Source of the DNA: Squalus acanthias
Taxonomy: Eukaryota
Direction of reading: 5' to 3'
Assembly (NCBI GenBank): GCA_030390025.1
Contig: CM059432.1
Location: forward strand, 83,516,001 to 83,580,000
Length of the DNA stretch: 64,000 bases
Part shown: positions 5,584 to 61,961 of the stretch, one piece after another
Numbering within the stretch: the stretch's first letter is position 1
How the letters are laid out: each line of letters begins with the position of its first letter
Translations under genes and position numbers: made by a program
The notes under the pieces: model-generated
Database searches by the model: none
Seen by the model: the letters and a program-made list of their open reading frames with translations, nothing else
What the model was told of the DNA's origin: nothing

Positions 5584-5698
5584 CCCAAGGTGATCAAATA
5601 TAACAGCAAAATACCGCGGATGCTGGAAATCTGAAATAACAACAGAAAACGCTGGAAAAACTCAGCAGGCCAGGCAGCATCCGTGGAGAGAGAAACAG

Positions 5699-5735
5699 AG
5701 TTAACGTTTCAGGTCTGGGACCCTTCATCAGAACC
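5699..5735 (-). ncRNA. Minimal type-I hammerhead ribozyme (Penelope pLTR)
   Basis: Minus strand reads GGUU-CUGAUGA-A-GGGUC CCA GACCU-GAAA-CG-UU-AACU: conserved core, helix II, palindromic ACGU in place of helix III, helix I GGUU/AACU. Confidence 0.75.
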
Positions 5736-5736
5736 G

Positions 5737-6056
5737 TACTTTACTTGTACTTCTTGCAATTTAGTATACTGTATTCGCTGCTCACGATGCGGTTCCTCTA
5801 CACTGGGGAGACCAAACGCAGATTGGGCGACCGCTTTGCGGAACATCTCCGTTCAGTCCATAAGGGTGACCCTGAGCTTCCAATCGCCTGTCACTTTAAT
5901 TCACCGCTTCACTCCCACTCTGATCTCTCTGTCCTCGGCCTATTACATTGTTCCAATGTAGCTCAACGTAAGCTCGAGGAACAGCACCTCATCTTTCGAT
6001 TAGGCACTTTAAAGCCTTCTGGCCTCAACATTGAGTTCAACAATTTCAAACTATAA
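5737..6056 (+). pseudogene. Penelope GIY-YIG endonuclease fragment (frameshifted)
   Basis: FTCTSCNLVYCIRCSRCG (ORF 5683) joined to LYTGETKRRLGDRFAEH...CHFNSPLHS...GLNIEF (ORF 5745): VY..C..C..YxGET motif, frameshift near 5795. Confidence 0.85.
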
Positions 6057-6904
6057 CCCCTGCCCCCATTTTTCATGCTGTATGATTTTGCCATTCCCAT
6101 TTGCAACATTTTATCTTTCCTGCCTCTTACAAAAGCACAGTATGTTCCTTCAATTCCTTCCTCCCCTCCTGTCTCTGCACCTGCTTAATATCTGTTATAT
6201 ATCCAGCTTTTTCCAGTTCTGATGAAGGGTTAACTCTGTTTCTCTCTCCATGGATGCTGCCTGGCCTGCTGAGTTTTTCCAGCGTTTTCTGTTGTTATCC
6301 CAAGGTGATCAAACTTGGTTTCGTAGGTGTTGGACTTTAATGTGAGTCATATCACATGATGCCCAAAATGTATATTGAAGCGAGCTTCCTTCTCACCAAA
6401 CCTCCAGATCTTGACATAATGGCCATCTTGATGGTTTAACTGCTAATCAATTTAACCCGATGTTTCCTCTCTAAATTTACAAAGGAACAGGAGATGACCT
6501 GGACAATCTCAGATAGTTGCTAATGTGTTAGCTTCAGTGCCTTCATTGTTCTGGCCAATCTGCTATTAACACCTCACTTGGGATGTTGCCAACCCGTCTG
6601 CTACTTCTTACTCCACCATTGTCCTGACCAATCTCCAATATTAGCATATCCTAATTGGACTATGACCCCGAGATGTTATGATTAACTTTGATGGGACACC
6701 TGACACAAAGCAAATGCTAACACGAGATATGTGTAACATAGTTTTTGTAAGAACTGTGAATGTTAGAGATTAAATAAAGTCACTAATAAGGTTTATAAAC
6801 CAAAAAAGAGCAACTGATTTCATGATTTTTAAGAGTTTGTCTGATTGTCTCATGATTTGAGATGGTGGGGAGGCAATATGGCATTACTGCATATATGCTT
6901 TTAA

Positions 6905-15263: not shown

Positions 15264-16633
15264 GTAAGTGCGAACCTTTACACAGATTTAAAAATGTTTC
15301 TGAGCACTATGGCAACTATTTGTAAAAGGGAGGGATAGAAAGGCTGTGTTACAATGGCTGAAATGGTCAGGAGAATGTTTCCCATCATGAAAGGATGATA
15401 TAATCTCCTGTACATAGGATTACATAGGATATACGGCACAGAAACAGGCCATTCGGCCCAACCAGTCCATGCCGGCGTTTATGCTCCACTCGAGCCTCCT
15501 CCCATCTTTCCTCATATAAATCTATCAGCATAACTCTCTATTCCCTTCTCCCTCATATGCTTGCCTGGCCTCCTTTTAAATGCATCTATATTTTCGCTTC
15601 AACCACTCCCAGTGGTAGCGAGTTCCACATTCTCACCACTCTTTGGGTAAAGAAGTTTCTTCTGAATTCCCTATTGGATTTCTTGGTGACTATCTTATAT
15701 TGATGGCCTCTAGTTATGCTCTTCCCCACAAGTGGAAACATTCTCTCGCTATCCACTCTATCAAAATCTTTCATAATTTTAAAGACCTCTATTAGGTCAT
15801 CCCTCAGCCTTCTTTTTTCAAGAGAAAAGAGACCCAGCCTGTTCATCCTTTCCTGATAGGTATACCCTCGCATTTCTGTTATCATCCTTGTAAATCTTCT
15901 CTGCACCCTCTCCAGTGCCTCTATATCCTTTTTATAATATGGCGACCAAAACTGTACGCAGTACTCTAAGTGTGGTCTACCCAAGGTTCGATACAGGTTT
16001 AGCATAAATTTTTTAATAAATACTTTTCAATTCTATACCTCTAGAAATAAACCCTAGTGCTTGGTTTGCTTTTTTTATGGCCTTGCTAACCTGTGTCGCA
16101 ACTTTTAGTGATTTGTGTATTTGTACTCTGAGATCGCTTTGTTCCTCGACCCCACCCAGACTCGCACCCTCCAAGTAATAAGTGACCTCCCTATTCTTCC
16201 AACCAAAATGTAATACCTCATATTTATCTGTGTTGAACTTAATTTGCCAATTATATGCCCATTCTACAAGTTTATTAATGTCCTCCTGTAACTTGTTGCA
16301 GTCCTCCTCAGTATGACTATCACCCCCAATTTGGTGTCATCCGCAAATTCAGAAATTGTGTTTTTGATTCCAAAGTCTAAATCATTAATATAAATTGTGA
16401 ACAACAGTTGTCCCAGCACTGATTCTTGTGGAACACCACCTTCTGCCACTGTGAATAGTTATCTTTTACCCCATCTTCCTGCTTTCTGACTTGAAGCCGG
16501 TTAGCTATCCATTCTGCTACTTGTCCTCTGACTCTGCATTTTCTGTGATGCGGAGATGCCGGTGTTGGACTGGGGTGGACAAAAGTGAGAAGTCGCACAA
16601 CACCAGGTTATAGTCCGACAGCTTTATTTGAAA

Positions 16634-16670
16634 TCACAAGCTTTCGGAGCGCTGCTCCTTCATCAGGTGA
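16634..16670 (-). ncRNA. Minimal hammerhead ribozyme
   Basis: Exact reverse complement of 17207-17243. Confidence 0.8.
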
Positions 16671-17206
16671 AGTGAAGAAATACATATGGGCACAGCATAT
16701 ATAGTCAGAGAACAATGCCAGACGACTACAGTTAATCTTTCTAACTGCCCTTTATCACACCTCGGCAGAGAGACAATCACGGCAATCAAAGGTGTGGATG
16801 GTGTCCAACCAGGTCAGTCAGGAAGACATTACATCAAAGACGATAGCAAAATACAACAAAGACAATGAGGTGGGGTCACAAGGGGACAAATGTGGCAGAT
16901 GCGGCCGGACCTGCTGTGATTTCCAGCAAAAAAAGTAAAAAGTTTAAAGTTTTTGGTTTTCCATACAGACTGCAGCATCTGCCACATTTGACCCCTTGTG
17001 ACCCCACCTCATTGTCTTTGTTGTATTTTGCTATCGTCTTTGATGTAATGTCTTCCTGACTGACCTGGTTGGACACCATCCACACCTTTGATTGCCGTGA
17101 TTGTCTCTCTGCCGAGGTGTGATAAAGGGCAGTTAGAAAGATTAACTGTAGTCGTCTGGCATTGTTCTCTGACTATATATGCTGTGCCCATATGTATTTC
17201 TTCACT

Positions 17207-17243
17207 TCACCTGATGAAGGAGCAGCGCTCCGAAAGCTTGTGA
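17207..17243 (+). ncRNA. Minimal hammerhead ribozyme
   Basis: UCAC-CUGAUGA-A-GGAGC AGC GCUCC-GAAA-GC-UU-GUGA: helix I UCAC/GUGA, 5-bp helix II, palindromic AAGCUU in place of helix III. Confidence 0.85.
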
Positions 17244-17497
17244 TTTCAAATAAAGCTGTTGGACTATAACCTGGTGTTGTGCGACTTCTCACTTCTGCAT
17301 TTTCTGACCTTGTTCATCAGTCTATTATGGGGTACCTTATTGAAAGCCTTTTGAAAATCTAGATAAATTACATCTACTGCATTACGATTGTCTACTGTCT
17401 CTGTTACCTCTTCAAAAAATTCAATGAGGTTGGTCAAGCAAGACTTTCCCTTTTGAAATCTATGCTGACTATTCATTACTATGTTTTTGGATTCTAG

Positions 17498-18375
17498 GGG
17501 CTGGATTTTACTTTTTGATGTGGCTTAGGGGCAGGACAGCTGCCTTCCGGGTTCCAATCCCGCCCCCAACAACGTCCGACGCACAGACGCTATTTTGCGT
17601 CAATTGGCCTTGTTAAGCCCGCCCTGTGGGCTTGCCGGCCAATTAAAAGAAAGCCAGTGTCAGATGATGTCAGTTGATGATGCGTCATCTGCCGGTTTTC
17701 TTAAAGGGGCTACGCACAATTTTGTTTGAAAGGTAATTTTTCAGTGTTTGACAGCATTGAGGTGCTGCAAACACTGACAATCACTGTACAAAGGTGAGCC
17801 CTTTCACCCAGGCTCTCCAGTGACTCCCTCCTTAGGCTAGAACAGATGACAGCTGCAGATGAGGTTACAGAAGCGATCTGTCACTGGTGAGAGAGGTTCT
17901 CCCAATGAGGTGGGACTACACAAACTCTTCAAAGCTTGTTACCTACAGAAAAGTCTAAATACATTAAAAATGATTTTCCCAACATTTTCTTACCTCTGAA
18001 ACTCACCAGTGTACCATTGGATCCTTCACATCACTTCTGCAGCTGTCATCAATGAAGAAACATTACAGTAGACCCACAGCACACCACACTTACTCTGACG
18101 TGGTGTCTGGATGTCGGGAAGCCCGCAGTAGACCTGTCAAAGTTGGAAAAAGCCTCTTAACTGCCTGTTAACAAGCTGTTAACAAGCAGTTAAGTGCCTA
18201 TAATCCTCTTCCCGCCGCTAGGTGTCGGGTCCATGCATAAATGGGGGACCCGACACCTGGGAAGATTGTTTGGAGGCGGCTTGACAGCGGGTTCGGGACC
18301 CACTGGCAAGCTTTGCAATTTTGCCACTGGTCCCGCCTCCAAACCCGCCCCCTGAGGGCCAGCAAAATTCCCTCC
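17498..18375. mobile_element. Non-autonomous Harbinger-like element in CR1
   Basis: TAG TSD (17495-17497, 18376-18378) restores the CR1 sequence; imperfect TIRs GGGCTGGATTTTACT / AGCAAAATTCCCTCC. Confidence 0.8.
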
Positions 18376-32133: not shown

Positions 32134-33234
32134 TATAGAGTCATAACGGCACAGAAGGAGGCCATCTGGCCCATCGAGTCCATGCCGGCTCTCTGTAGAG
32201 CAATCAAGTCAGTCGCATTCCCCCGCTCTATCCCCGTCGCCCTGCAAGTTTATTTCCCTCAAGTGCCTATCCAGTCTCCCCTTGAAAAAACTGAGTGTCT
32301 CTGCTTCCACCACTTCCGTCGGCAATGAGTTCCAGGTCATCACCACTCGCTGCGTAAAAAAGTTTTTCCTCACATCCCCCCTGTATCTCTGGCCCAAAAC
32401 CTTAAATCTGTGTCCCCTAGTCCTTGTACCTTCAACTAGTGGGAACAGCCTTTCCCCGTCTAGCCTATCCAAACCCGTCATAATCTTGTACACTTATATC
32501 AAATCACCCCTCAACCTCCTTTGTTCTAATGAAAACAAATCCAGCTTCTCCAACCTGTCCTTGTAGCTAAGATCCCCCATCCCCGGAACCATTCTGGTAA
32601 ATCTCCTCTGCACCTTCACATCATTGCTAAAGTGTGGTGACCAGAACTGGACGCAATACTCCAGTTGTGGCCTAACCAGCGCTTTATAAAGATTCAGCAT
32701 AACTTCGCTACTTTTGGGGCTCAATTTTGCCGGCGCTCAGGGGGCGGGGTTGGAGGCGGGTCAGGCGGTAAATTTGAAAAAAATGCCAGCGGGTCCGATC
32801 CCGCCGTCAACCCGCCTCCGTCCAACTTTTCCAAAGGCGGGCTCGCAGATTCCCGGTCGGTCCCGCCACCAAGTTGCGGGATAGGGCCTTAAGGGAGTTG
32901 TTAACTCCCTGTGTAATCCTATTTTGCCTGGCCTTTTACATTTTACCACATTTTCAGTGTGTTCCACCTCATTACCAAACCACGCCAGCTAATTGTGTCG
33001 GGTTCACAAGTGACTGGCTTCCTGATAGCTGCAGCTCCAGCATAAAAACTGAGCTTTCAACAAGGCTCAGTTGCAGGTGGCAGAACTTTGTTTTTTCAGG
33101 TCTTGGCAAACTTTTTGCAGGTCTACTGATTTTGGAAGTGGTGAAGCTGAGATCCATCTCCTCTGTGACCTCCTGGGAAAACCCTCTCCCCACACTAACT
33201 GAGCACTTCCTCAACTGAGATATTTACCAGCAGC

Positions 33235-34353
33235 ATGGGAACCATTTATTTCCTTTCATCCTGGTCCTCAGATTTGGAGGAAGAGCAGCCGCAGCAGCAG
33301 CAGAACCAGGAACAACAACAGCAGCAACAACAGGAGCGCCAACCTGCTGCTCACCCACCTGAAGCTGCACAGGGCAGAAGGCATCAGTGCAGGGAAGCAC
33401 GTCGCTGCAGGAGATACCCCCAACACAGGGTTTACAGGCCGAGGAGCAGCTTCCTAAACATGAGTGAGCAGCAGTGCCAAAGGAGGCTGAGATTTTCACG
33501 AGAGGTAGTCGGTGACATCTGCGCAATGCTGCATCAACGCCTGGAGCCCAGAGGAGTGGGTGGACACCCCTTACCAGTGGCTGTCAAAGTCACCACCGCA
33601 CTCAATTTTTTAACTTCAGGGTCCTTCCAGGGATCATCAGCAGACATCAGCGGCATCTCCCAGTCGGCCGCACACACTTGCATCACGCAGGTAACCGATG
33701 CCCTCTTTGCCAAGGCGCACAATTACATACACTTCTCGATGGATCAAGCAAGTGTAACCGCGCGTGCGGTTGGAATTGCAAATATGGCAGGCTTGCCAAG
33801 GGTGCAGGGCGTCATAGACTGCACACATGTGGCCCTTAGGGCACCTCATCACAACCTAGTTGTTTTTGTCAACCGCAAGGGCTTCCACTCCCTCAACGTT
33901 TGCTGGTGTGTAACCACAGGAAGGACATTTTGCATGTTTGCGCGAAGTACCCTGACAGTTGTCATGACTCGTTTATCCTGCGCCAGTCTAGTGTGCCTCC
34001 GCTCTTCAATCCACCAAACCAACTTGTGGCTACTTGGAGACAAGGGCTATCCCCTGAAGACGTGGCTGAAGACGCCGTTGAAGAGACCATCCAATGAAGC
34101 TGAGGAGCGCTATAATGCCAGCCACATTTCTACCAGATCCATTATCGAGCAAACCATCAGCTTGCTGAAGATGCGATTCAGCTGTCTTGATAGATCAGGT
34201 GGAGCCCTACAGTATTCAGCAGCCAGGGTCTCCAGAATCGTCGTGGTCTGCTGTGCACTGCACAACATCGCACAGCATCGTGGCTTGCAGCTGCCTGAGG
34301 AACAAGTGGCTCAGCGCATAGCCTCCTCAGATGAGGAGGAGGAGGAGGAGTAA
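33235..34353 (+). pseudogene. Harbinger (HARBI1-like) DDE transposase with internal compensating frameshifts
   Basis: [41 protein letters not shown] motifs; the [11 protein letters not shown] segment lies in another frame (33900-34025). Confidence 0.9.
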
Positions 34354-34727
34354 GAAGACATTGCGGAGGCGGATCAGCCAGCTGCAGCAGCATGCGAGCA
34401 CACTGCTGCCCGGGATGCAAGGGATGCACTAATATTTGCCAGATTCGCTTAAGTAGACGAATCAAACAAATGGGGCTGGCACCTTCTTAGCACACCATAC
34501 ACAATGGACAAGAACCTGTGGCTTCCTATCACTCTGACCACCATCATTACAAATGCAAGTCGCCCTGAACCCTCAATGTGGAACTTCCATTTCCGAGATC
34601 AAATAGGCCAGAACTTCAACTGTTTGCCATCACTTCTGTTTAATCCATTCACAGAAGGATGACAATGTCAAATATTAAATAAAACAAAAGACAACAGAAC
34701 AGAACACCCAATTGACTACCCTTGTGA

Positions 34728-36645
34728 CTAATTGTGCTTTATCTTCCTCTTACGTGTGCTTCTACGTGGTGCTTCCCCTGTGGCTTCTGGGTTTGCGAGC
34801 CTCTGAGGGCTCGGCAACAGTCTCCTCTCATGTGTCTGTGCAGGGGCTGAGCCACCCATCTCAGTTGGGTGAGGACTCTGGTGGGGATCTGACCGAGGGC
34901 TACTTAGTGGCATGGGAGTGTGAGCGCTTGAAGAGGAGCCCCTACTTCCTTGTTGCCTGCCACCAACATCCCTCTCATGGGTCAGCCCCACTTCAGTGCT
35001 AGCAAGTGGCTTGACAGCACCTTGCTGCACATCAGGGGGGCCAATGAGGACCCGTATCTGCACTGGCAGTCCTACTCCAGAGGACTTCCATGAAGCTCTG
35101 GTTTCTCTGCTCAATAGCTGCCCATCGCTCCTCCAGAGATATCAGTCTATTCTGAACATTCACCATGTTTTCCTGACTCTGGCAACTTATTTCATCCATA
35201 GCCGTAGCCATCCTCTCCTCTACCGTTGCCAACCTTTCCAGAGAGGTAGCCATCATTTCCACGGAGGTTGCTATCCTTTCCGTGATGGTGCGTTCATGTG
35301 CCATTGCCTCCACAAAGGCACTGCTCATGTTAGAGTTGGACTCCTCCATCCTCTCCACACTCGCAGTAACCATGGAGATAAAACCTGCCAGAGACTCCTG
35401 CATTTCTTCCTGGAGTTCCAGCACCGCTCTCCTTCTGGATGGACCCAGAGGCACAGGGGCCACATGCAGCTGAGCCGAGCTGGGAGTGCCCTGCGGCCTC
35501 CAATGAAGACTCTCCACTGCTGTCCCTGTCTCCACCATCTGCTGATGCTCACTTGTGAGCTGTGATACACCAGGTGACAACACTACTCTATCTCCCGAAG
35601 GTCCCACCGAGGTGTGAGTGTCTGCGCTGGTGCTGGGTGCGCTTAATTCTGCTGACGCTGCACCCTCAGAGGTTGCAGGTTCCTCTGAGGAGTCTTCCGG
35701 CTCAGCCTCTTGCACCTGGACAGTGGGGAGGGGGGCTGTCGATGGTCCTGTGGGGGAGTAAAGGCATGAGTTAGAAATGTGATATTAACGTAGCATGCAC
35801 ATGGACTTGTGCAGATGATCATAAGTCAATTTGTATGAGCATCAGAAGCCATATCAGTCACTCATGCAATGTGAATGATAGAGATGCAAAACTATTCTGT
35901 CACCAGCTTGCTCAGATGCGCCCATCTGTCCGTCCCCCACTTCCAGATCCTCCTCGACTCCCACGATCTCCAGGGCCGCCTCCTCAGCGCTGGTGAGATG
36001 GGCTATTGTGGGTGGCCCTCCTCCTGTCTTCACCCTTTCCCCCTTATTGTGGGCTCTCTTTTCCTGCAATGAGGGACACAAGTGGAGTTTGAGTAATAAT
36101 GATGGAATGAGTGTAGAGAATCCATAGCATAGATGCTTAGAAGGAGACAAAGATGGAGTGAGTTCCAAAGTCAAGGGCCCTCCCTGTGTGTTGTTAGTTG
36201 TTGTCATTGCATAACAGTGATAGGGAGTGTGAGGGCAGCATAGTCGAATAGTGAAGTGATTGTGTACATAGAGAGAGAGGGATGGTTAAGGGTGCAAGAG
36301 ATGTAAGGGTAAAGTGGGATGTGTAGGAGTAGGTTGGCAATGCAGAGTGCTGGTGCTGAGAGGAGATGGGGAGCAGAATGAGGGTAAAGGTGATGGTCTA
36401 CTCACTTTTCCTGTGCGGACAAGGTCATTGAACTTCTTTCGGCACTGCAGCCAGGTTCTGCTGCACACTGATCTGGAGCTCACCTCCTGAGCCAGTTGCA
36501 GCCACACAGCTTTGGTTTGCTGAGGAGGTTTTTTCTTCCCAGAGGAAGGAAAGAGCACTTCCTTTTGAACTCTCGCTCCCTCCACCAGAGCATGGAGGGA
36601 GTCATCATCGAAACGTGGTGAGGCCTTGGCCCTTGAGCTCGACAT
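34728..36645 (-). CDS. Harbinger Myb/SANT-like partner protein, 3 exons (36645-36406, 36063-35904, 35747-35032; probable frameshifted tail to 34728)
   Basis: PRFDDDSL...WLQLA...RTWLQCRKKFNDL; GT-AG introns in phases 0 and 1 give a continuous 371-aa frame; coiled-coil-like exon 3; basic RRSTRKRK end in an adjacent frame. Confidence 0.8.
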
Positions 36646-37529
36646 TTCAGCAGTAGAACACACTTTAAGCAGTTGTCACTCTGGAAGAACATAGGCACAA
36701 AATGAAGCAATGCTGCTTGGAGGCCTTAAATGCAGCTGGAGAAATGACGTCAGCAGGGGCGAGTTTCAAGTGCCAATTAGGGCAATATCGCAATTTTATC
36801 CTGCCCGACAGCGGAGGCGGAATCGGGACCCGCCGACCACCTGACCCGCACTCAACCCGCCACCAATGGCAAAATCGAGCCCTTGTACTCAATACCTCTA
36901 TTTATGAAGCCCAAGATCCCATATGCTTTGTTAACCACTCTCTCAATATGTCCTGCCACCTTCAGGGACCTCTGCACATTAACTCCCAGATCCCTCTGTC
37001 CCTGTACACTCTTTAAAACTGTGCCATTAAGTGTATATTGCTTCTCCCTGTTCCTTCTGCCAAAATGCATCACCTCACACTTCTCTGTATTAAATTCCAT
37101 CTGCCACTTGTCTGCCCATTCTGCTAGCCTTGCTATGTCCTGTTGCAGTTGATTGGTATCAACCTCACTGTTTGCCACACCCCCAAGTTTGGTGTCATCG
37201 GCAAATTTAGAAATTCTACTCTGTATTCCAATATCCAGGTCATTTATATATATCAAAAAAAGCAGAGGCCCGAGTACTGACCCTTGGGGAACACGACTGT
37301 CTACCATCCTCCAGTCTGAAAAACAGCCATTTACCACAACTCGCTGTTTTTTGTCCTGAAGCCAATTCCTTATCCAAGCTGCCACTGCCCCACCTATTCC
37401 ATGAGCCTCAATTTTGTTAACCAGCCTTCTATGTGGTACTTTGTTGTTACTGGGACAAATTTCTAATGCCTGTGTCAAAGTGCTGTACTAAATGGCCATC
37501 GTCATTCAGAAACTGGCTGCTGAAGGCAG

Positions 37530-40043: not shown

Positions 40044-40515
40044 TGGGTACAGTAGCATAGTGGTTAGGTTACTGGACTGGACTAATAATCCAGAGACGTG
40101 AGTTCAAATCCCACCACGGCAGCTGGGGGGATTTAAATTCAGTCAATTCAATAAATCTGGAATAAAAAGCTAGTATCAGTAATGTTGATCATGAAACTAC
40201 CGGATTGTCGTAAAAACCCAACTGGCTCACTAATGTTCTTTAGGGAAGGAAACCTGTCGTCCTTACCTGGTCTGACTCCAGACCCACAGCAATGTGGTTG
40301 ACTCTTAACGGCCCTCTGAAATGGCCTAGCAAGCCATTCAGTTGTACCAAACCACTACGACAAAGTCAGCACTGTGGCAGGACCTTCACCACACGGACTG
40401 CAGCGATTCAAGGTGGCGGCTCACCACCATCTTCTCAAGGGCAATTAGGGATGGGCGATAAATGCTGGCCTTGCCAGCAACGCCCACATCCCATGAACGA
40501 ATAAATAAATAAAAA
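40044..40515 (+). mobile_element. tRNA-headed SINE with LINE-derived 3' tail
   Basis: Box A TAGCATAGTGG, box B GAGTTCAAATCCC, tail CACCACCATCTTCTCAAGGGCAATTAGG...(aata)n. Confidence 0.8.
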
Positions 40516-42760: not shown

Positions 42761-42879
42761 TGTTTTGCATTGGAATGAATGATTTATAAATTATGTTTGG
42801 AATGTTTGTTTTGTGGTGGCTTTCATTTCAGCATTGTGGCCAAGAGGACGCTGTGATGTTCCATGACAGAGGAATGGTA

Positions 42880-44053
42880 AGGTTGGGAACTGTTGAGCAA
42901 CGGGGATCTGGCGACAGCCCGTCCGGAACATGGATTTGCAGGTTGCCTTCTTCCTTCCTCCTCTTTTTCCTCTTCCTCCTTTTCTTCCTTCTCCTCCTCC
43001 TCTTCATCTCCTCCTCCTGAGATTGTCGTGGAACCCGTGGTGGCAAGGGCTGTGCCCTCATGATGGTCAAGTTGTGTAGGATGTAGCAGACCACCACGAA
43101 ATGAGACACCTGCTCCGGTGAATATTGGAGGGCTCCTCCCGAGTGGTCAAGGCAGTGGAACCATTGCTTGAGCACCCCGATGATCTGCTTGATGATGTTC
43201 CTCGTGGCAGCATGGCTGTCGTTATATGAGTGCTGGCCACGAGTGGTGAGGTTGCGGAGGGGCATCATCAGCCTGGTGTAGAGCGGATAGCCCTTATCAC
43301 CTAGCAGCCATCCTCAGGTTCAACGTGCTGGCTGGAAGATTGCTGGCACAGTGGACTGGCGCAGGATGAGGGCATCCTGACTGCTGCCAGGATACCAGGC
43401 ATTCACCATCATGATGTGCTGGGCACGGTCAAACACAAACTGCACATTAAGTGAGTGGAACCATTGACGGTTATGGAACATCTCACCATTGATAAGCGGC
43501 GCTCACAAAGCTATGTGTGTGCAGTCGATGGTGCCCTGCACCAAGGGGAAGCCCAATATCCTGGCAAAGCCATGGGCGTGCTTCTCCTGCTTCTCTCTGT
43601 TTAGAGAGAAGACAATGAAGTCCCCTCTCATAGAGCACAGAGCCTCTGTGACCTTCCGGATGCAGCAATGGACAGCCAACTGTGAGATGTTTGCTATGTC
43701 ACCTGTTGTAGCCTGGAAGGATCCACTGGCAAAAAAATTCAGGGCCACGGTCACCTTCAAGGCCACTGGCAGAGCTATAGTTGCCCTGCTCTGAGGTTGC
43801 AGATCTGGTTCCAAGAGGTGACAGAGTTTTGTGACCACCTCCTTTGTTGAAGCGGAGCCGCTGAACGCAGTGCTCCTGGTTTAGGTGCAGGCGGGAGAAG
43901 TGCTCCCTAAAGACCCTAGGTCAGTGAGGCCTCCTGCTCAGAGCCCTCCTCTCCCTCCTCCTCTTGCTGCGAGCAACATGTCTTCTTCGCTGCCTCTGCT
44001 CCATCTCCCTGTCATGCTGCAGCGTGAGGGGACCTGCAACTAAAGACCCCATT
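42880..44053 (-). pseudogene. Harbinger DDE transposase, fragmented
   Basis: ORFs 43503-43838 (ALNFFASGSFQ, GTIDCTH) and 42828-43268 (GVLKQWFHCLD, CYILHN); GDKGYP at ~43285-43305. Confidence 0.9.
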
Positions 44054-48968: not shown

Positions 48969-49054
48969 ATATCGTCTCCACGCTTTGGGTGATTCGGAAC
49001 AACCAGCTGCAACTCGAACCACAGAAGGGAACTAGGGCAAGAAACTGATCCATC

Positions 49055-49860
49055 ATGGAAAACTCCTTAGACCCGCTCGTCTCGACCTGGACCCGAATGC
49101 ACCTGCGGCAGCGAAGGTATGGAAGCATTGGTTTCGTACCTTTAGCAACTTTCTTGAAGAATGTGGGGCGGATGTCCCTAATAAGTTACGAATGCTTATC
49201 AACTACGTGTCTCCTCATGTGTATGATTATATTGAGGACTGTATAGACTATGACACTGCTATCGAAATCTTACAGCAGCTATATGTCAAGTCCCCAAATG
49301 AAATCTTTGCTCGACACCTACTGGCCACAACTCGGCAGCAGCCTGGGGAATCACTCGATGAATTTCTCCAGAAACTTCGCAGGCTCAGCAAGGATTGTAA
49401 CCTTAAAGCAGTTACAGCTGAACAGTATCAAGAGGAACTAATCCGCGATTCCTTTATCAATGGGATCGCGTCCCCTTTTATACGTCAGCGCCTGCTGGAA
49501 AATAAAACCCTCAATTTACGGGCTGCTTATGACCAGGCGTGTTCCTTGGACTTGGCCAAGAAAAATGCAGACACTTATCTCCCACCACGTGCACGGGCGG
49601 CGGCTATCTCCTTTAATGAGTCTTTCGGTAGGTCTCGGGCGGATGCCCCCACTGATGTCGACTCTACTCTAACAGACGACGACCCTACCCTAGAGGCCTT
49701 CGCTGATGACGACCCCTGCCCTAGCAGCATCCTGGCAATCAGGAAGAAAGTGTTTCTTTTGTGGAGGGGCGTGCCATCACAGAAAATTTTGCCCGGCTCG
49801 TAATGTGACCTGCAATCATTGCAGCAAGAAAGGACACTTTTCCAAGGTATGCCAGTCACG
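49055..49860 (+). CDS. gag: Gypsy Gag with two CCHC zinc knuckles (frameshifts at ~49060 and ~49715)
   Basis: LRPARLDLDPN..WKHW, RQQPGESLDEFLQKLRRLSKDC, LIRDSFING, CFFCGGACHHRKFC, CNHCSKKGHFSKVC. Confidence 0.85.
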
Positions 49861-52800
49861 GGCCTTTGCTAACAAGAAAGGCCGCTCCTCTAAAGTATAC
49901 CGGTCGAGAGCTCCTGTTAGCTTCACAGCTGCTATCTATGGAGCTGCTCCTCCCCCAGGAACCACTGTTAAGGCTACAGTTGCCGAAGGGAAAATTGCCC
50001 CTCCTCCCATCACGGCTGTTTTTCCCCAAAGTTTGTCCCATGCAGCCACGAAGGTTTCAGTAAATGGGCACACTCTAAGCGCGCTAATCGACTCCTGCAG
50101 CTCTGACAGCTTCATTAGTAAGCGGGCTGTCAACAGGTTAAAACTGCACATTTATCCCTCGGACAGGGAGATTGCAATGGCTCTGACGACTCTGACCACC
50201 AATTCTTCTGGCTTCTGTCTGGTCAACCTCATCCTCAACGGCCGCACGTATCTCTCCACCCGGCTCGGAGTACTCGCAAACTTATGCAGCGATGTGCTTC
50301 TGGGACAGGACTTCCAGAAGCAGCACAAGAAGATCACTTTTGAGTTTGGAGGATCAAGGCCGGAGCTTACCATTTCTAAGGTGCCGTTTTGTGCACTCTC
50401 GGCGGCCTTACTCGGTGAACCCTCCCTGTTTGCCAATCTTCCCCCCCGCTGTAAACCCATAGCCACCAAATCGCGGCGCTTTAGCCAAGACGATCGAGCG
50501 TTTATTGAGGCGGAAATCTCTCGCCTTTTAGTCGACGGTATTATCGAGCCATGTTCATCTCCCTGGCGGGCTCAGGTCGTCATCGTGAGGAATCCCTTAA
50601 AACAACATAAAAAACGTCTGTGTATCGATTATTCGCAGACTATTAATCTATATACCGATCTGGATGCCTACCCGCTGCCACGCATAGATGACATGGTCAA
50701 CAACCTTGCCAAATACAAGGTATTCTCGACCTTCGATTTAAAAAGCGCGTACCATCAGGTGCCACTGCAAGACTCCGACAAGAAGTATACGGCCTTTGAG
50801 GCCAATGGTCGGCTTTTCCAGTTTCGCCGCCTTCCATTCGGGGTCACCAATGGGGTGGCCGTCTTCCAACGGGCCATGGATGGCCTAGTCCGGCAAGAGA
50901 ACTTGACGGATACCTTTCCGTATTTAGACAATATCACTATTGCCGGCCATGATCAAAAGGAGCATGACGCCAATCTTCAGAGATTTTTTGATGTACTCCG
51001 CCGTCGCCACTTAACGTTAAACGAATCCAAATCGGTGAAGTCGGTGCCATCGGTGAACATTCTTGGCTACTGGGTGGGCAACGGTGTTATTAAACCGGAC
51101 CCAGAGCGACTTCGTCCACTTCAGGAGCTCCCTCCCCCGACGAACCTCGGCTCTCTTCGTCGGGCACTTGGCATGTTTGCTTATTACGCAAAATGGATAC
51201 CACACTTCTCCGATAAAATACAGCCCCTGCTCCATGCGAAGTCTTTTCCATTGGAAGCTACGGCTATTTCTGCCTTCAACCTCCTCAAACGACAGCTGGA
51301 GAAAGCCACGCTTCGCTCCATTGACGAAAATCTTCCTTTGTGGTCGAATGCGATGCATCGGAGGTGGCGATCTCCGCTACCTTGAATCAAGGTGGCCGAC
51401 CCGTGGCATTCCTATCCAGAACCTTGCAGGGTAGCGAGCTCCATTACCCCCCCGTCGAGAAGGAGGCTACGGCCATCATCGAGGCTGTACGCCAATGGGG
51501 TCATTTTCTTGCTCGGCGTCATTTTACGCTTATAACTGACCAGCGCTCTGTGGCCTTCATGTTGGATAACCGGAGGCGCACGAAAATCAAAAATAATAAA
51601 ATTCAACTCTGGAGGATGGAGCTGGCTGCCTTTGGATATACTATTTGCTACCGACCCGGCAAACAGAACGTGGCCCCAGATACCTTCACACGGGCATTTT
51701 GCTCCTCAATGTCAACGTCGACTCTGGCGGATTTGCATATGGACTTATGCCATCCTGGTGTGACCCGCATGTTGCACTTTGTGCGCTCCAAAAATCTACC
51801 ATTTTCAACCGAGGACGTAAAGAAAACATGCTCCTCCTGTAGGATTTGTGCAGAATTGAAACCACAATTCTTTCGCCCATCAGATGGCTTACTCATACAT
51901 GCAATGCAGCCTATGCAGAGGCTCAGCATAGACTTTAAAGGGCCATTGCCTTCGTCGACAAGGAACACCTACCTACTTACGATGGTGGACGAGTATTCAC
52001 GCTTTCCCTTCGCCTTCCCCTGCCCTAATATGCTTACCTCTACGGTAATTAAATGCCTCGATCAGGTCTTTTCCCTTTGCGGGACGGCCAATTTTATCCA
52101 CACTGATCGGGGTCCCTCCTTTATGTCGAGTGAACTTAAAAGTTATCTCTCCCAACGGGGAATCGCCTCAAGTAGGACGACACCATATCACCCAATCGGT
52201 AACGGACAGGTTGAACGATACAATGCCATCATCTGGAACTCTGTCCGTCTGGCACTAAGGTCACGCAACCTGCCGGACCAGCAGTGGGAAACGGTGCTCC
52301 CCGACGCGTTACACTCTATCAGGTCTCTTCTCTCCACATCTACTAATGTCACGCCTCATGAGCGATTCTTCAAATTCCGGCGTCGCTCTACACATGGGAC
52401 GTCTCTACCGTCATGGTTGGTGGCTCCAGGCCCGGTGCTACTCCGGAGGTTCGTCCGGTCTGCCAAAAACGACCCTCTCGTTGACGAGGTGGAGTTAACG
52501 GAGGTAAACCCCACGTATGCGCACGTACGGTACCCTGATGGCCGGGAGACCACCGTCTCGCTCCGAGATCTGGCTCCCTGCCCAACCGGTCACACGGGCC
52601 CGAATGATGAAGGATCCCCCGACAATGATATCAACACTCCGCACCCCTATGAAAATGATGCCCCGCCTGGGACATCGGGGGATCTGCCGGCAACGCTACC
52701 GGATCAACTCAGGGAGCTGGACGCTCCCCGTAGGATGGCCACCCGAAACCAGGACGCCGGACAATCTCCAGCCACGACCCGGGATGAGGCCAGCTCAGCA

Positions 52801-52995
52801 CCTGTGGGGACCCGCACCCGGAGTCATGATATTCCCAGTCCTCCACAGGATGATCAAGATGACGCGGACTCTACTGACTTACCGGTACGGGCCAAGCGAC
52901 CCAGGGACCAGGACACGGTCCGGGGAGACGTGCCTTCCAGTCACAAGCAGAGAGCCAAACGTCTACGGCTATTTCTGGTCCGCCTAGTCCGTTAA
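49861..52995 (+). CDS. pol: Gypsy Pol: protease, RT, RNase H, integrase (frameshift at ~51338)
   Basis: ALIDSCS; DLKSAYHQ, LPFGVTN, YLDN; CDAS, EKEA, TDQ; HHCC, IDFKG, HTDRG, VERYN; no chromodomain evident. Confidence 0.92.
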
Positions 52996-58934: not shown

Positions 58935-59070
58935 ACATTTTCCGGTTTTGATGAAAAATCATCCACCTAAAACATTAACTCTGTTTCTCTCTCCGCATAT
59001 GCTGCCTGACCTGCTAAGTGTTTCTAGCATTTTCTGTTTTTATTTCAGATTTCCAGTATTTTGATTTTAT
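58935..59070 (+). mobile_element. Decayed Penelope pLTR
   Basis: ttaactctgtttctctctcc..atgctgcctgacctgct matches 6229-6298; hammerhead core mutated. Confidence 0.7.
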
Positions 59071-59547: not shown

Positions 59548-61961
59548 GGCCCTAAAATGCCGGCCACCACTCTTTCGCCAACTGGTGGCGAGTCCCGTGA
59601 CGGCCGCCATTTTGGTCCCTACCTTTGCGTTGATGGTAACTGGCATTGCCATTCTGAACAAAATGGCGGCGTTGTGACGTGCACGCCGACTTAACGTCAC
59701 AAATGCGAACTTGGACCCTAACACTGGGTCCTAAGCACGCAAGCATGGCGTGCAAGCAGGCTGACAGTGGTGATGTCAACACCTCTTAAAGGACACACAC
59801 ATCTTTCAGGTAAGTTTGTATTTAAGCTTTATGACTTTTTTTTTGATTTTATTGAAGTAGTGGCTTGCTGCAATAGATATTAAAAGTTTTTTAAGTGTGT
59901 AGGAAGTGCTGCTGGATGCTTGCAAAGGCTCGGATGGTAAATGAAGGCCTTTGAGCAGACAGAAAATGTTGCAAATACTCAGCAGGTCAGGCAACATCTG
60001 TGGAGAGAAAAACAGAGTTCACGTCTCAGGTCGAGATGCTGCCTGACCAGCTGAGCATTTCTAGCATTTTATGCTGGCATTTCACATTTACAGCATCCAC
60101 TCGCAGAGGGAAGAGGAGGACACAGAAGAGGACGAAGCAGAAGAGGAGGAAGCAGATGGATGGATGCATCCCAGACAGCCCCTTTGTGGCTGAGATATCT
60201 GGGATGGTATCATCTGCCTCCGGTACCAGTGACTACAACCCAAATTCCAACATTAGTCCCACACCTTACCTTCCCTCTTTTACTGACCATAACAGTGTTC
60301 TCTTGGCCACGATGCTGAAATAAAAGCCACCATAAAGCAAACTTTTCAATCCAACTATATACATCTATCCATCCAATGTGACATCAAGAAATCAACTCAT
60401 TACCCTTATGCATTCTCTTAGTGACTGTCTTGTGTGTGCCTTTGCCTATCCTACTGAAGTCACGCAATACTACCCCAGTGGCTGCAGCATGGTTGGTGGA
60501 AGGCTGCTGACTTTCAGTGGGGGACACTGCAAATGGCCTTGCTGGTCGACCTTGAGGAGCTGGTGGCTGGGACTGTGAAATCAATCTTCTTCTTCTTGTT
60601 CTTCTTCACCCTCCTCTCCCTCTTCTTGGTCATCCATTGACTGGGCAGGCTGCATTTCTTGGGTGTGTGAAATGAGGAAGGCACAAGGGCGTTGTGGTGA
60701 CGGGAGGGCAGGAAAGCATGAGGTGCATGCCAGAAGGAGGATAACGTATGAGGATACCAGCATCTTGTATCCTTTCAGCCCCACCACTGGCCAAGGGCTC
60801 AGCCATGCCCCTGCCAAGAATGGCCTGCACCATCTCCTCCAAGGGGGTGAGGTGAGGCTAGGAATGGGAGATGTGCCTCGTGATTGGTGCAGATTGTTGG
60901 TAGGTGAGTGATTGGGGGTCATACATTGAGCAGTGTGTGAGGCTAGTGGTGCAGTTGGTAGGAGACGGCTTTTGAAGATGCATTCACTGACCTTGACCAC
61001 TGGTCTGAGGTCATAAAGCTTCTTTGGGCACTGGATCCACGTGGTGGGGGCGACACTGCTGGCAATGATAGCCTCGGTCATCTGGTTCACATCGTTCTTT
61101 CTGGAGGGCCTCCTGGCCCCTGTGGGTAGAGGGCCTATCTTGCATGTTGATCCCCTGCACAAAGCTGGAGTGCTGAGTGTAAGATGTTGGGTGCCCCTTC
61201 CCTGGCTTGCTGAGCCATTTTGTTAGTGCTGGAGCACTTTTCCCATTTTTTGAGGTTAGAAAGGGAATTCAGCTTTAAGAGCTGAATATTCACATCTGAG
61301 ACTTCTTTTTAATGTTTTAAAAAAAAATCAGACTGGGCTGAAAACTGGATTGTTTCATTGGATTTTAATTTGTATTATTTCAGAGTGCATGGCCCCTTTA
61401 ATTCTCAGGCCTTTACATTGCCCACAATTCCTTGCGAGCTCCACAGCCTCGCTTCCCCTAAAAAGAGTAAATGCTGTTCTACTCTGCCTTATAGGAGTCA
61501 CCAGGAGAAAGGGAGTGCTTGCTAGAGGGCCCCTTGATCTGCAGGAGGAATGGGAGGCCAGGCAGAGCAGCATCAGCTGCTGCAGGAGAGAGGGACAGGA
61601 GGGCGAGGTGGACTCCTTCCCTCTGTGAGTACAGGACATCCCTCCTCCTCTGGACCGCCTCCATCAGGACCTCCAGTGCCGCGTCCAAGAACCTGTGAGC
61701 CCTCTCACTCGGTCCCTGAGCCATCCTGAAAGGTGCCACTGTGCCAGCGCACATTACATCTTCAGTAGAAGTGGGTGAGTGAGCCTAAAAATACTGCTCC
61801 ACGAAAATTGTGTCTAATCAGCGCCTCCAGGCAAGTTCAAATTATGGTAATCAGCAGTTAGAACCAAAATTGCATGCTAAAACCACTTTCAAACAGGCCG
61901 TATCTTATTAGCACACCACCCATTTAGCACCTGTGTGCATCCTTTCACCAAAATAACCCCC
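59548..61961. mobile_element. Harbinger derivative (transposase deleted; two Myb exon-1 remnants)
   Basis: Transposase 3' stub ~60100-60230; Myb remnants (-) 60410-61220 and 61620-61725 (HRFLDAALEVLMEAVQRRRDVLY). Confidence 0.7.
59955..60098. mobile_element. Short inverted Penelope pLTR pair
   Basis: actcagcaggtcaggcaacatct ... agatgctgcctgaccagctgagc. Confidence 0.6.

Follow-up and report, generated by a model that had tools for sequence, protein, structure and literature searches.

A head-to-head pair of truncated Penelope-like element copies with predicted hammerhead motifs inside a CR1-like LINE of Squalus acanthias

A hairpin insertion of 748 bases (16546-17293) in the Squalus acanthias genome carries one hammerhead motif on each strand. 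The locus lies in a stretch of 64,000 nucleotides (GCA_030390025.1, CM059432.1, positions 83,516,001 to 83,580,000) that was analysed as a whole and is called the window in the following. The question is whether such a foldback belongs to a mobile family of its own, in which self-cleavage might compete with dsRNA formation, or whether it is what a Penelope-like element (PLE) ordinarily leaves behind when it integrates. We consider the latter the best explanation overall, i.e., with a probability of roughly 0.8 we are looking at two head-to-head truncated PLE copies that were formed once, at integration, and that contain passive hammerheads. As a single locus the insertion thus read matters little, as it is the expected footprint of Penelope-type integration. 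The features referred to below are the following (coordinates, strand, description and, in brackets, evidence).

15900-17501, minus strand: host, a decayed CR1-like LINE (RT region); interrupted by the insertion, coordinates as given by the blast matches, with the LINE itself extending beyond them
16533-16545, no strand: TSD, left copy, 13 bp (register test; empty-site continuity)
16546-16582, minus strand: PLE tail, 37 bp, at the left end only, family 3' terminus (register test; family loose ends)
16546-16902, minus strand: shorter, tail-bearing, 5'-truncated copy, i.e., arm 1 (16583-16902) plus tail (register test and run contigs)
16634-16670, minus strand: minimal type I hammerhead motif, predicted cut between 16638 and 16637 (descriptor)
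16896-16902, no strand: 7-nt microhomology common to both copies at the inversion junction (run loose ends)
16896-16905/16972-16981, no strand: intrinsic inverted repeat, its 5' strand holding 16896-16902 (sequence comparison)
16896-17293, plus strand: longer, tail-less, 5'-truncated copy, i.e., spacer (16903-16974) plus arm 2 (16975-17293) (register test, run contigs)
16896-16928, plus strand: segment about 80% like the Neptune-like pLTR of the window's second PLE family (alignment and shuffles)
17207-17243, plus strand: minimal type I hammerhead motif, predicted cut after U17239 (descriptor)
17294-17306, no strand: TSD, right copy, 13 bp (register test)
5584-6313, no strand: second PLE insertion, other family, same geometry

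According to the register test, the inverted arms 16583-16902 and 16975-17294 pair over 320 bp in the register i+j=33877. About two mismatches had been noted and exactly two are found (16617/17260 and 16886/16991); a second repeat comparison gives 326 nt at 99%, chance extension included. The 72-bp spacer (16903-16974) and the 13-bp direct repeat (16533-16545 and 17294-17306) also hold to the base; base 17294 belongs to the outermost pair of the arms and at the same time opens the right TSD copy. With only two differences in 320 bp, the event is young, or gene conversion acted later. Compared with the family majority in public runs the variant at 16617 is private to arm 1. The 37-bp tail (16546-16582) sits between the left TSD and arm 1, while the right end shows no partner for it; such a one-sided tail is a PLE signature. 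An AATAAA is located at 17249-17254 and, mirrored, in arm 1; in both copies, read in sense orientation, it follows the hammerhead directly on its 3' side.

The flanks of the insertion belong to one decayed CR1-like LINE on the minus strand, which other copies in the window match at 59-79%. Its RT frame ends in the right flank with ...NKVRKCR and resumes in the left flank with RKCRVRG..., i.e., the overlap consists of the duplicated codons only and the frame crosses the empty site with a single TSD copy. Empty sites are also found directly: CR1 contigs run from 16545 into sequence like that from 17307 onward, 29 of them in run X5 and 53 in run X6. Since the frames overlap only in the TSD codons and such empty-site contigs exist, the 13-bp repeat is a true insertion scar. 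This bears out the earlier argument that the TSD speaks against an assembly artefact. Palindromes are prone to fold-back errors in assembly, and among the contigs listed none spans the whole compared stretch 16250-16995. An artefact is nevertheless scarcely credible given the TSD with its continuous CR1 frame, the empty-site contigs of both runs, the one-sided tail with flanks that differ between the sides, the two arm mismatches, and a spacer that matches real family sequence. With regard to the wider neighbourhood, 61 frames of the window reach at least 120 aa; for the 30 that were scanned with Pfam no host gene was found, which is compatible with an intronic position of the insertion. Matches were obtained in 9/30 scanned frames, all of transposon type except for one sub-threshold match inside a LINE frame.

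The original prediction of a Penelope-type origin is well founded, as tail, inverted truncated copies, TSD and minimal hammerhead are all present. We find a head-to-head truncated copy, a tail in the range of 30-40 bp at one end, a TSD with an empty site, a minimal type I hammerhead in the pLTR, and a fixed 3' end with varied flanks. That the locus is a routine PLE inverted insertion is therefore very probable in our view. An inverted 5'-truncated copy with a tail at one end and a TSD is described as the typical PLE structure (PMC8557442, PMC3846280, PMC8969392), and the insertion has this published head-to-head 'inverted pLTR + tail + TSD' shape, which is well known for such elements. Compared with the EN+ PLE insertions covered in the available parts of PMC3846280 and PMC8557442, the shark locus shares the head-to-head truncated copy, the tail of 30-40 bp (37 here), the TSD (13 bp here, 8-10 bp in rotifer examples), the location within another retroelement, and the hammerhead in the pLTR. 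In contrast to these examples (PMC3846280, PMC8557442), its junction is no perfect palindrome but a 72-bp loop with a 7-nt overlap, and its copies are cut too short for an ORF, which is why the insert is almost a pure palindrome.

The predicted lack of a coding domain was confirmed by tblastn with 12 PLE-related proteins, which revealed no PLE coding domain in 16560-17293; only 1 of 38 matches touches the element, namely the CR1 RT flank at 16434-16559. Two other classes were considered and rejected. With neither an RT or GIY-YIG ORF nor a PLE protein match in 16560-17293, i.e., because the ORF is absent, we do not count the insertion among the autonomous EN+ PLEs (Penelope/Poseidon, Neptune) and assign it to no named clade. 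A MITE or foldback DNA transposon does not agree with a 37-bp tail outside the left arm that has no counterpart on the right.

With regard to the hammerheads, complete cores had been claimed at 17207-17243 (+) and 16634-16670 (-), and our descriptor recovers both. Each shows a 4-bp stem I, CUGAUGA, one extra A, a 5-bp stem II, GAAA, a loop-less palindromic helix III (AGCU) and a CUU cleavage triplet; "intact" here denotes consensus-complete cores. The loop-less palindromic helix III in each arm agrees with the minimal dimer-type hammerhead that was expected. In the whole 64-kb window the descriptor reports three motifs (C3 at 17211 on the plus strand, and on the minus strand at 16666 and 5731), each of them having a palindromic helix III without a loop, compared with a mean of 0.03 motifs per window in 100 dinucleotide shuffles, none of which had a palindromic helix III. 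Rfam reports no hammerhead family at gathering score, nor among the 4 matches at E<=5; three miRNA-precursor matches far below gathering score are generic hairpin matches. Folded in isolation, hammerhead pieces of 56-134 nt are no better than shuffles (z from -0.73 to 0.19), as expected of a minimal motif. The only core variant among the family contigs listed, considering well-supported differences, is 16662 at the free N7 position. Variation confined to N7 hints at a constraint on the hammerhead core in the mobile family, as far as these contig differences can tell.

Dual minimal hammerheads about 100-700 bp apart on opposite strands have been tied to truncated PLEs (PMC4209133). The shark motifs resemble those described in that source in their opposite-strand pairing (about 570 bp apart here), the 4-bp helix I, the extra base between positions 9 and 10.1, the G10.1-C11.1 pair, the palindromic 15.2-16.2 and the missing loop 3. 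They differ in a helix II of 5 bp, compared with 7-8 in Schistosoma, and in their host, a cartilaginous fish (PMC4209133). In the experiments of PMC4209133, minimal motifs did not cleave as monomers and cleaved only little as dimers. The hammerhead of an Anolis PLE, in the available account, cut only in the presence of protein and was dispensable for insertion in vitro (PMC11167929).

The original prediction also proposed that self-cleavage and long dsRNA compete in transcripts of either direction, which would make the locus a functional RNA switch. Two observations are in its favour beside the consensus-complete cores: N7 is the sole listed core variant, and a transcript from the spacer start, which lacks the antisense arm, is predicted to form stems II and I with probabilities of 0.93 and 0.81. 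For a transcript starting inside the arm, the respective values drop to 0.40 and 0.01. Read-through RNA behaves differently in the equilibrium folding predictions. Because the copies are arranged head-to-head, the antisense arm is transcribed before the ribozyme arm from either side, and stem II is left with a probability of about 5e-19, which also holds for a transcript ending just after the hammerhead. The two strands fold with predicted energies of -668 and -652 kcal/mol, such that no competition arises in the model. Only RNA that starts inside the element would, according to these models, leave a hammerhead motif free, and such RNA would still be short of the second copy on its own strand which a helix III without a loop requires. 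Among the 3 motifs of the 64-kb window no such twin exists, the third one being different in helix III, and the inverted layout provides no partner. When forced, the active fold of two copies reaches -19.1 kcal/mol vs. -28.9 kcal/mol for the best alternative cofold, i.e., the dimer fold is not favoured in the model. Together with the reported inactivity of monomers of this type (PMC4209133, available parts) and the dependence on protein of the Anolis hammerhead (PMC11167929, likewise), this makes a functional switch a most improbable reading. Both hammerheads are instead predicted to be locked in dsRNA and passive.

What the competition model had right may be its dsRNA side. Read-through RNA is predicted to fold as a 320-bp duplex without self-cleavage and would then be a potential Dicer/ADAR substrate, which is plausible if the locus is transcribed. 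Run X16, which we guess to be RNA, shows a depth peak at 16550-16650, but summed contig depth is no measure of expression and the peak carries no weight here. The dsRNA/Dicer route itself is already published for Penelope inverted repeats in Drosophila (PMC3681739). These share with the shark locus a long inverted repeat derived from rearranged copies and thereby the potential for dsRNA; the Drosophila repeats are a source of siRNA, whereas the shark locus is known from its DNA sequence alone (PMC3681739, as far as available).

Non-LTR retrozymes are another class of hammerhead-bearing elements with which the insertion can be compared (PMC7229834; bioRxiv 10.64898/2026.07.22.740005). Both are non-coding, PLE-related and equipped with type I hammerheads, and their sizes are similar (mean consensus of 363 bp, one chondrichthyan; bioRxiv 10.64898/2026.07.22.740005). 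Retrozyme units are joined head-to-tail and allow for dimer cleavage and circles, whereas the head-to-head shark insert allows for neither, as judged from the accessible part of PMC7229834. We rejected this assignment, since the hammerheads lie on opposite strands and the window contains no same-strand twin.

To place the locus within its family, four public runs (X5, X6, X16, X22) were compared with 16250-16995, i.e., with the left flank, the tail, arm 1, the spacer and 21 bases of arm 2; X22 contributes 13 reads and stems from a more distant organism. Joints are reported for the best 15 of 40 and loose ends for the best 19 of 810. In X5 alone, 16,741 contigs cover the element and the CR1 flank. 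The tail end at 16546 is followed by varied flanks in at least 141 contigs of X5 (agreement 0.39), at least 27 of X16 and at least 3 reads of X22, while X6 shows a tail end at 16552 in at least 41 contigs, again with varied flanks. That is, the tail end is a fixed family terminus and the element an interspersed repeat with varied flanks. Exact-pattern scans for the hammerhead region gave 0 loci in viral contigs and 0 in metagenome contigs; the 17-nt tail motif has 5 viral loci, all of them chance 19-nt matches without further likeness. Several family contigs skip 32-41 bases within 16776-16818, which suggests a subfamily deletion.

The inner breakpoints behave differently from the tail. Loose ends before 16896 occur in at least 22 contigs of X5, 72 of X6 and 8 of X16, and the sequence upstream is common to them (agreement 0.83-0.97), i.e., where contigs enter the spacer at 16896, they do so out of this shared upstream sequence and not out of arm 1. 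Behind 16902, at least 38 contigs of X6 run on into sequence that resembles the right end of the spacer in reverse complement. At least 6 contigs of X5 continue differently from those of X6 and may represent another family. X5 also shows an opposite-strand joint 16894/16973. Given the contigs at 16896/16902 and this joint, the spacer is the sense family sequence of the plus copy (16896-17293). As the plus copy starts at 16896 and the minus copy runs from 16902 to 16546, both overlap by 7 nt at 16896-16902. Among the 15 joints listed (of 40), four further ones connect an antisense arm head-to-head with a sense spacer at other breakpoints:

16758/16954: X5 and X16, one contig per run
16770/16900: X5, one contig
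16841/16951: X5, one contig
16780/16915: X6, one contig

These four joints have a depth of 26-34 and extra letters between their sides, and with sides of 20-29 letters at 88% likeness they are less reliable; deletions within a fixed foldback could have produced them. Copies with the very junction of the reference locus do not register as joints. Since the tail joins many flanks, the spacer is ordinary family sequence and the other breakpoints differ, each insertion likely forms its foldback afresh, and a recurrence of the exact 16896-16902 junction is unlikely.

The original prediction had left the choice between a one-off truncation product and a mobile non-autonomous ribozyme-foldback family that moves as a fixed hairpin unit. 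The former is the likely one. The mobile unit could draw on the clean TSD, the young arms and the missing ORF, as well as on the finding that no more than pLTR sequences is needed to mobilise cargo in trans (PMC3846280). We nevertheless consider it improbable, since contigs leave the sequence of the locus on both sides of the junction, i.e., before 16896 (at least 22, 72 and 8 in the runs named) and behind 16902 (at least 6 and 38), and since the four other junctions have other breakpoints. Furthermore, a 320-bp duplex would be a poor RT template and would hide the RT start region.

Additional evidence against a fixed hairpin comes from the window's second PLE family, which shows the same shape with its own junction. 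The insertion at 5584-6313 has a 15-bp TSD (5584-5598/6299-6313), inverted arms, and a 37-bp tail (5599-5635) on a short minus-strand copy, while the longer, tail-less plus-strand copy carries the end of a GIY-YIG domain. Its minimal hammerhead has C3 at 5731 on the minus strand. That hammerhead is complete in the short copy; in the long copy about 17 bp are missing (3' side of stem II and GAAA). Relatives of this family hold RT and GIY-YIG domains and a cysteine-rich linker, the latter being a mark of the Neptune and Nematis clades (PMC8557442, as far as available). The window's PLE fragment has 12 relatives, and all 8 named ones are from sharks, skates and rays. No DNA likeness is found between the arm body and the 3' UTR of the second family (401/500 shuffles are as good), and the likeness between the hammerhead end of the arm and the second family's pLTR is not significant (32/500 shuffles). 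As two independent families thus share the geometry within 12 kb, the inverted shape is probably a by-product of PLE integration. A third, older head-to-head remnant of the Neptune-like pLTR is observed at 59959-60098, where two inverted pieces meet near 60033, and a single copy of this pLTR lies at 58943-59059.

How could a PLE generate such a product? For the mechanism we lean towards priming from two nicks. The PLE endonuclease would make staggered nicks 13 nt apart; the top-strand end would prime at the outer RT start site (the tail end, 16546) and be copied to 16902, while synthesis from the bottom-strand end would begin at the inner start site (17293) and pass the spacer to end at 16896. 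Being complementary, the 3' ends of both cDNAs would then anneal at 16896-16902, followed by fill-in. This route accounts for the TSD, the one-sided tail, the head-to-head polarity and the overlap. Purified PLE protein has been described to cut and extend both target strands, with a dimer being predicted, and its RT to start at two adjacent internal sites that bound the tail (PMC11167929, parts available to us). The element of that study, Poseidon of Anolis carolinensis, is similar to the shark insertion in its two adjacent tail-bounding ends, in both strands being usable as primers, and in a hammerhead about 55-90 nt upstream of the element ends; in contrast, the in vitro work is without an inverted product in the part of the source at hand (PMC11167929). 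Downstream of its hammerhead, the shark insertion differs from Poseidon in lacking an ORF start tied to any protein.

A related scheme is the twin priming of LINE-1, where both target overhangs prime cDNA, leading to an inversion and a TSD (PMC9148063, as far as accessible). The shark insertion, unlike L1 products, copies the same 320 nt twice, which needs two templates or re-copying. In L1 twin priming, the inverted and upright parts stem from different RNA stretches.

Re-copying leads to an alternative for the same kind of insertion, which we regard as possible although clearly less probable than the two-nick route. Here, the inverted arm would arise by fold-back self-priming at 16896, i.e., a cDNA or antisense template ending at this position would snap back on the intrinsic inverted repeat and copy itself, with the tail derived from a short second priming. 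The junction lies exactly at this repeat (16896-16905/16972-16981), and the 16896-16902 overlap is part of the stem of the intrinsic hairpin (predicted -20.4 kcal/mol as RNA and -10.8 as cDNA). Furthermore, the arms differ at only 2/320 sites and yet share non-majority variants such as 16662 and 16715, and self-priming on an antisense template is favoured for head-to-head PLE junctions in the available text of PMC3846280. However, a tail-less cDNA cannot template the tail when snapping back, such that a second priming is needed anyway, and the four other junctions lie away from the intrinsic hairpin and carry extra letters. One locus cannot separate fold-back self-priming from two-nick priming. 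Still, the insertion is a clean example: it is young, and priming from both target nicks, at the two RT start sites known from the in vitro work, agrees with its TSD, with the polarity of its tail and with the 7-nt overlap at its junction. A catalogue of shark junctions could show how PLE inverted repeats arise.

Finally, the source RNA of the insertion deserves attention. The segment 16896-16928 is about 80% like the Neptune-like pLTR, a score that 0/2000 shuffles reached against each of two copies, and a looser likeness to the Neptune-like family runs through its tail region to about 16981. Other copies, from two organisms, also have this segment connected to the arm, as seen from the joints 16770/16900 and 16780/16915. 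From the likeness and the arm joints, the source RNA seems to combine two PLE ends on the same strand, with an additional, Neptune-like pLTR piece apparently located upstream; the loose-end consensus upstream of 16896 comprises 30 letters only. A bolder version, which we regard as doubtful, is a chimeric non-coding PLE derivative of cartilaginous fishes with a Neptune-type pLTR about 370 nt upstream of an unrelated pLTR. The former would probably have its own hammerhead and promoter, while hammerhead and tail of the second pLTR would be used for integration. If true, this would be a two-ribozyme, retrozyme-sized parasite that takes its promoter from one PLE family and its enzyme from another, and the many inverted insertions of this parasite would document, in nature, how PLEs integrate. 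A two-pLTR chimeric parent would then add a small new variant of PLE parasite. In the literature covered we found no description of the shark family or of a two-pLTR chimera; the family may already be catalogued in Repbase/Dfam.

The window contains several other repeats. A 157-bp inverted pair (25236-25392/27993-28149) with 99% identity is separated by 2.6 kb. One partner is a SINE-like fragment, truncated and embedded in a CR1, the other belongs to a longer copy close by; candidate readings of this arrangement are gene conversion and a local retrotransposition event. The pol region of an LTR retrotransposon with long open frames (protease, RT, RNase H, integrase) is located at 49036-52995 and is likely young. 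At 40052-40115, a weak tRNA match at the Rfam threshold is probably the head of a tRNA-derived SINE. Frames with DDE_Tnp_4 transposase and Myb/SANT domains are present at 33199-36675 and 42828-43313, which we take to be Harbinger-like by this domain pairing, and several related copies of them give rise to the long inverted matches of the window.
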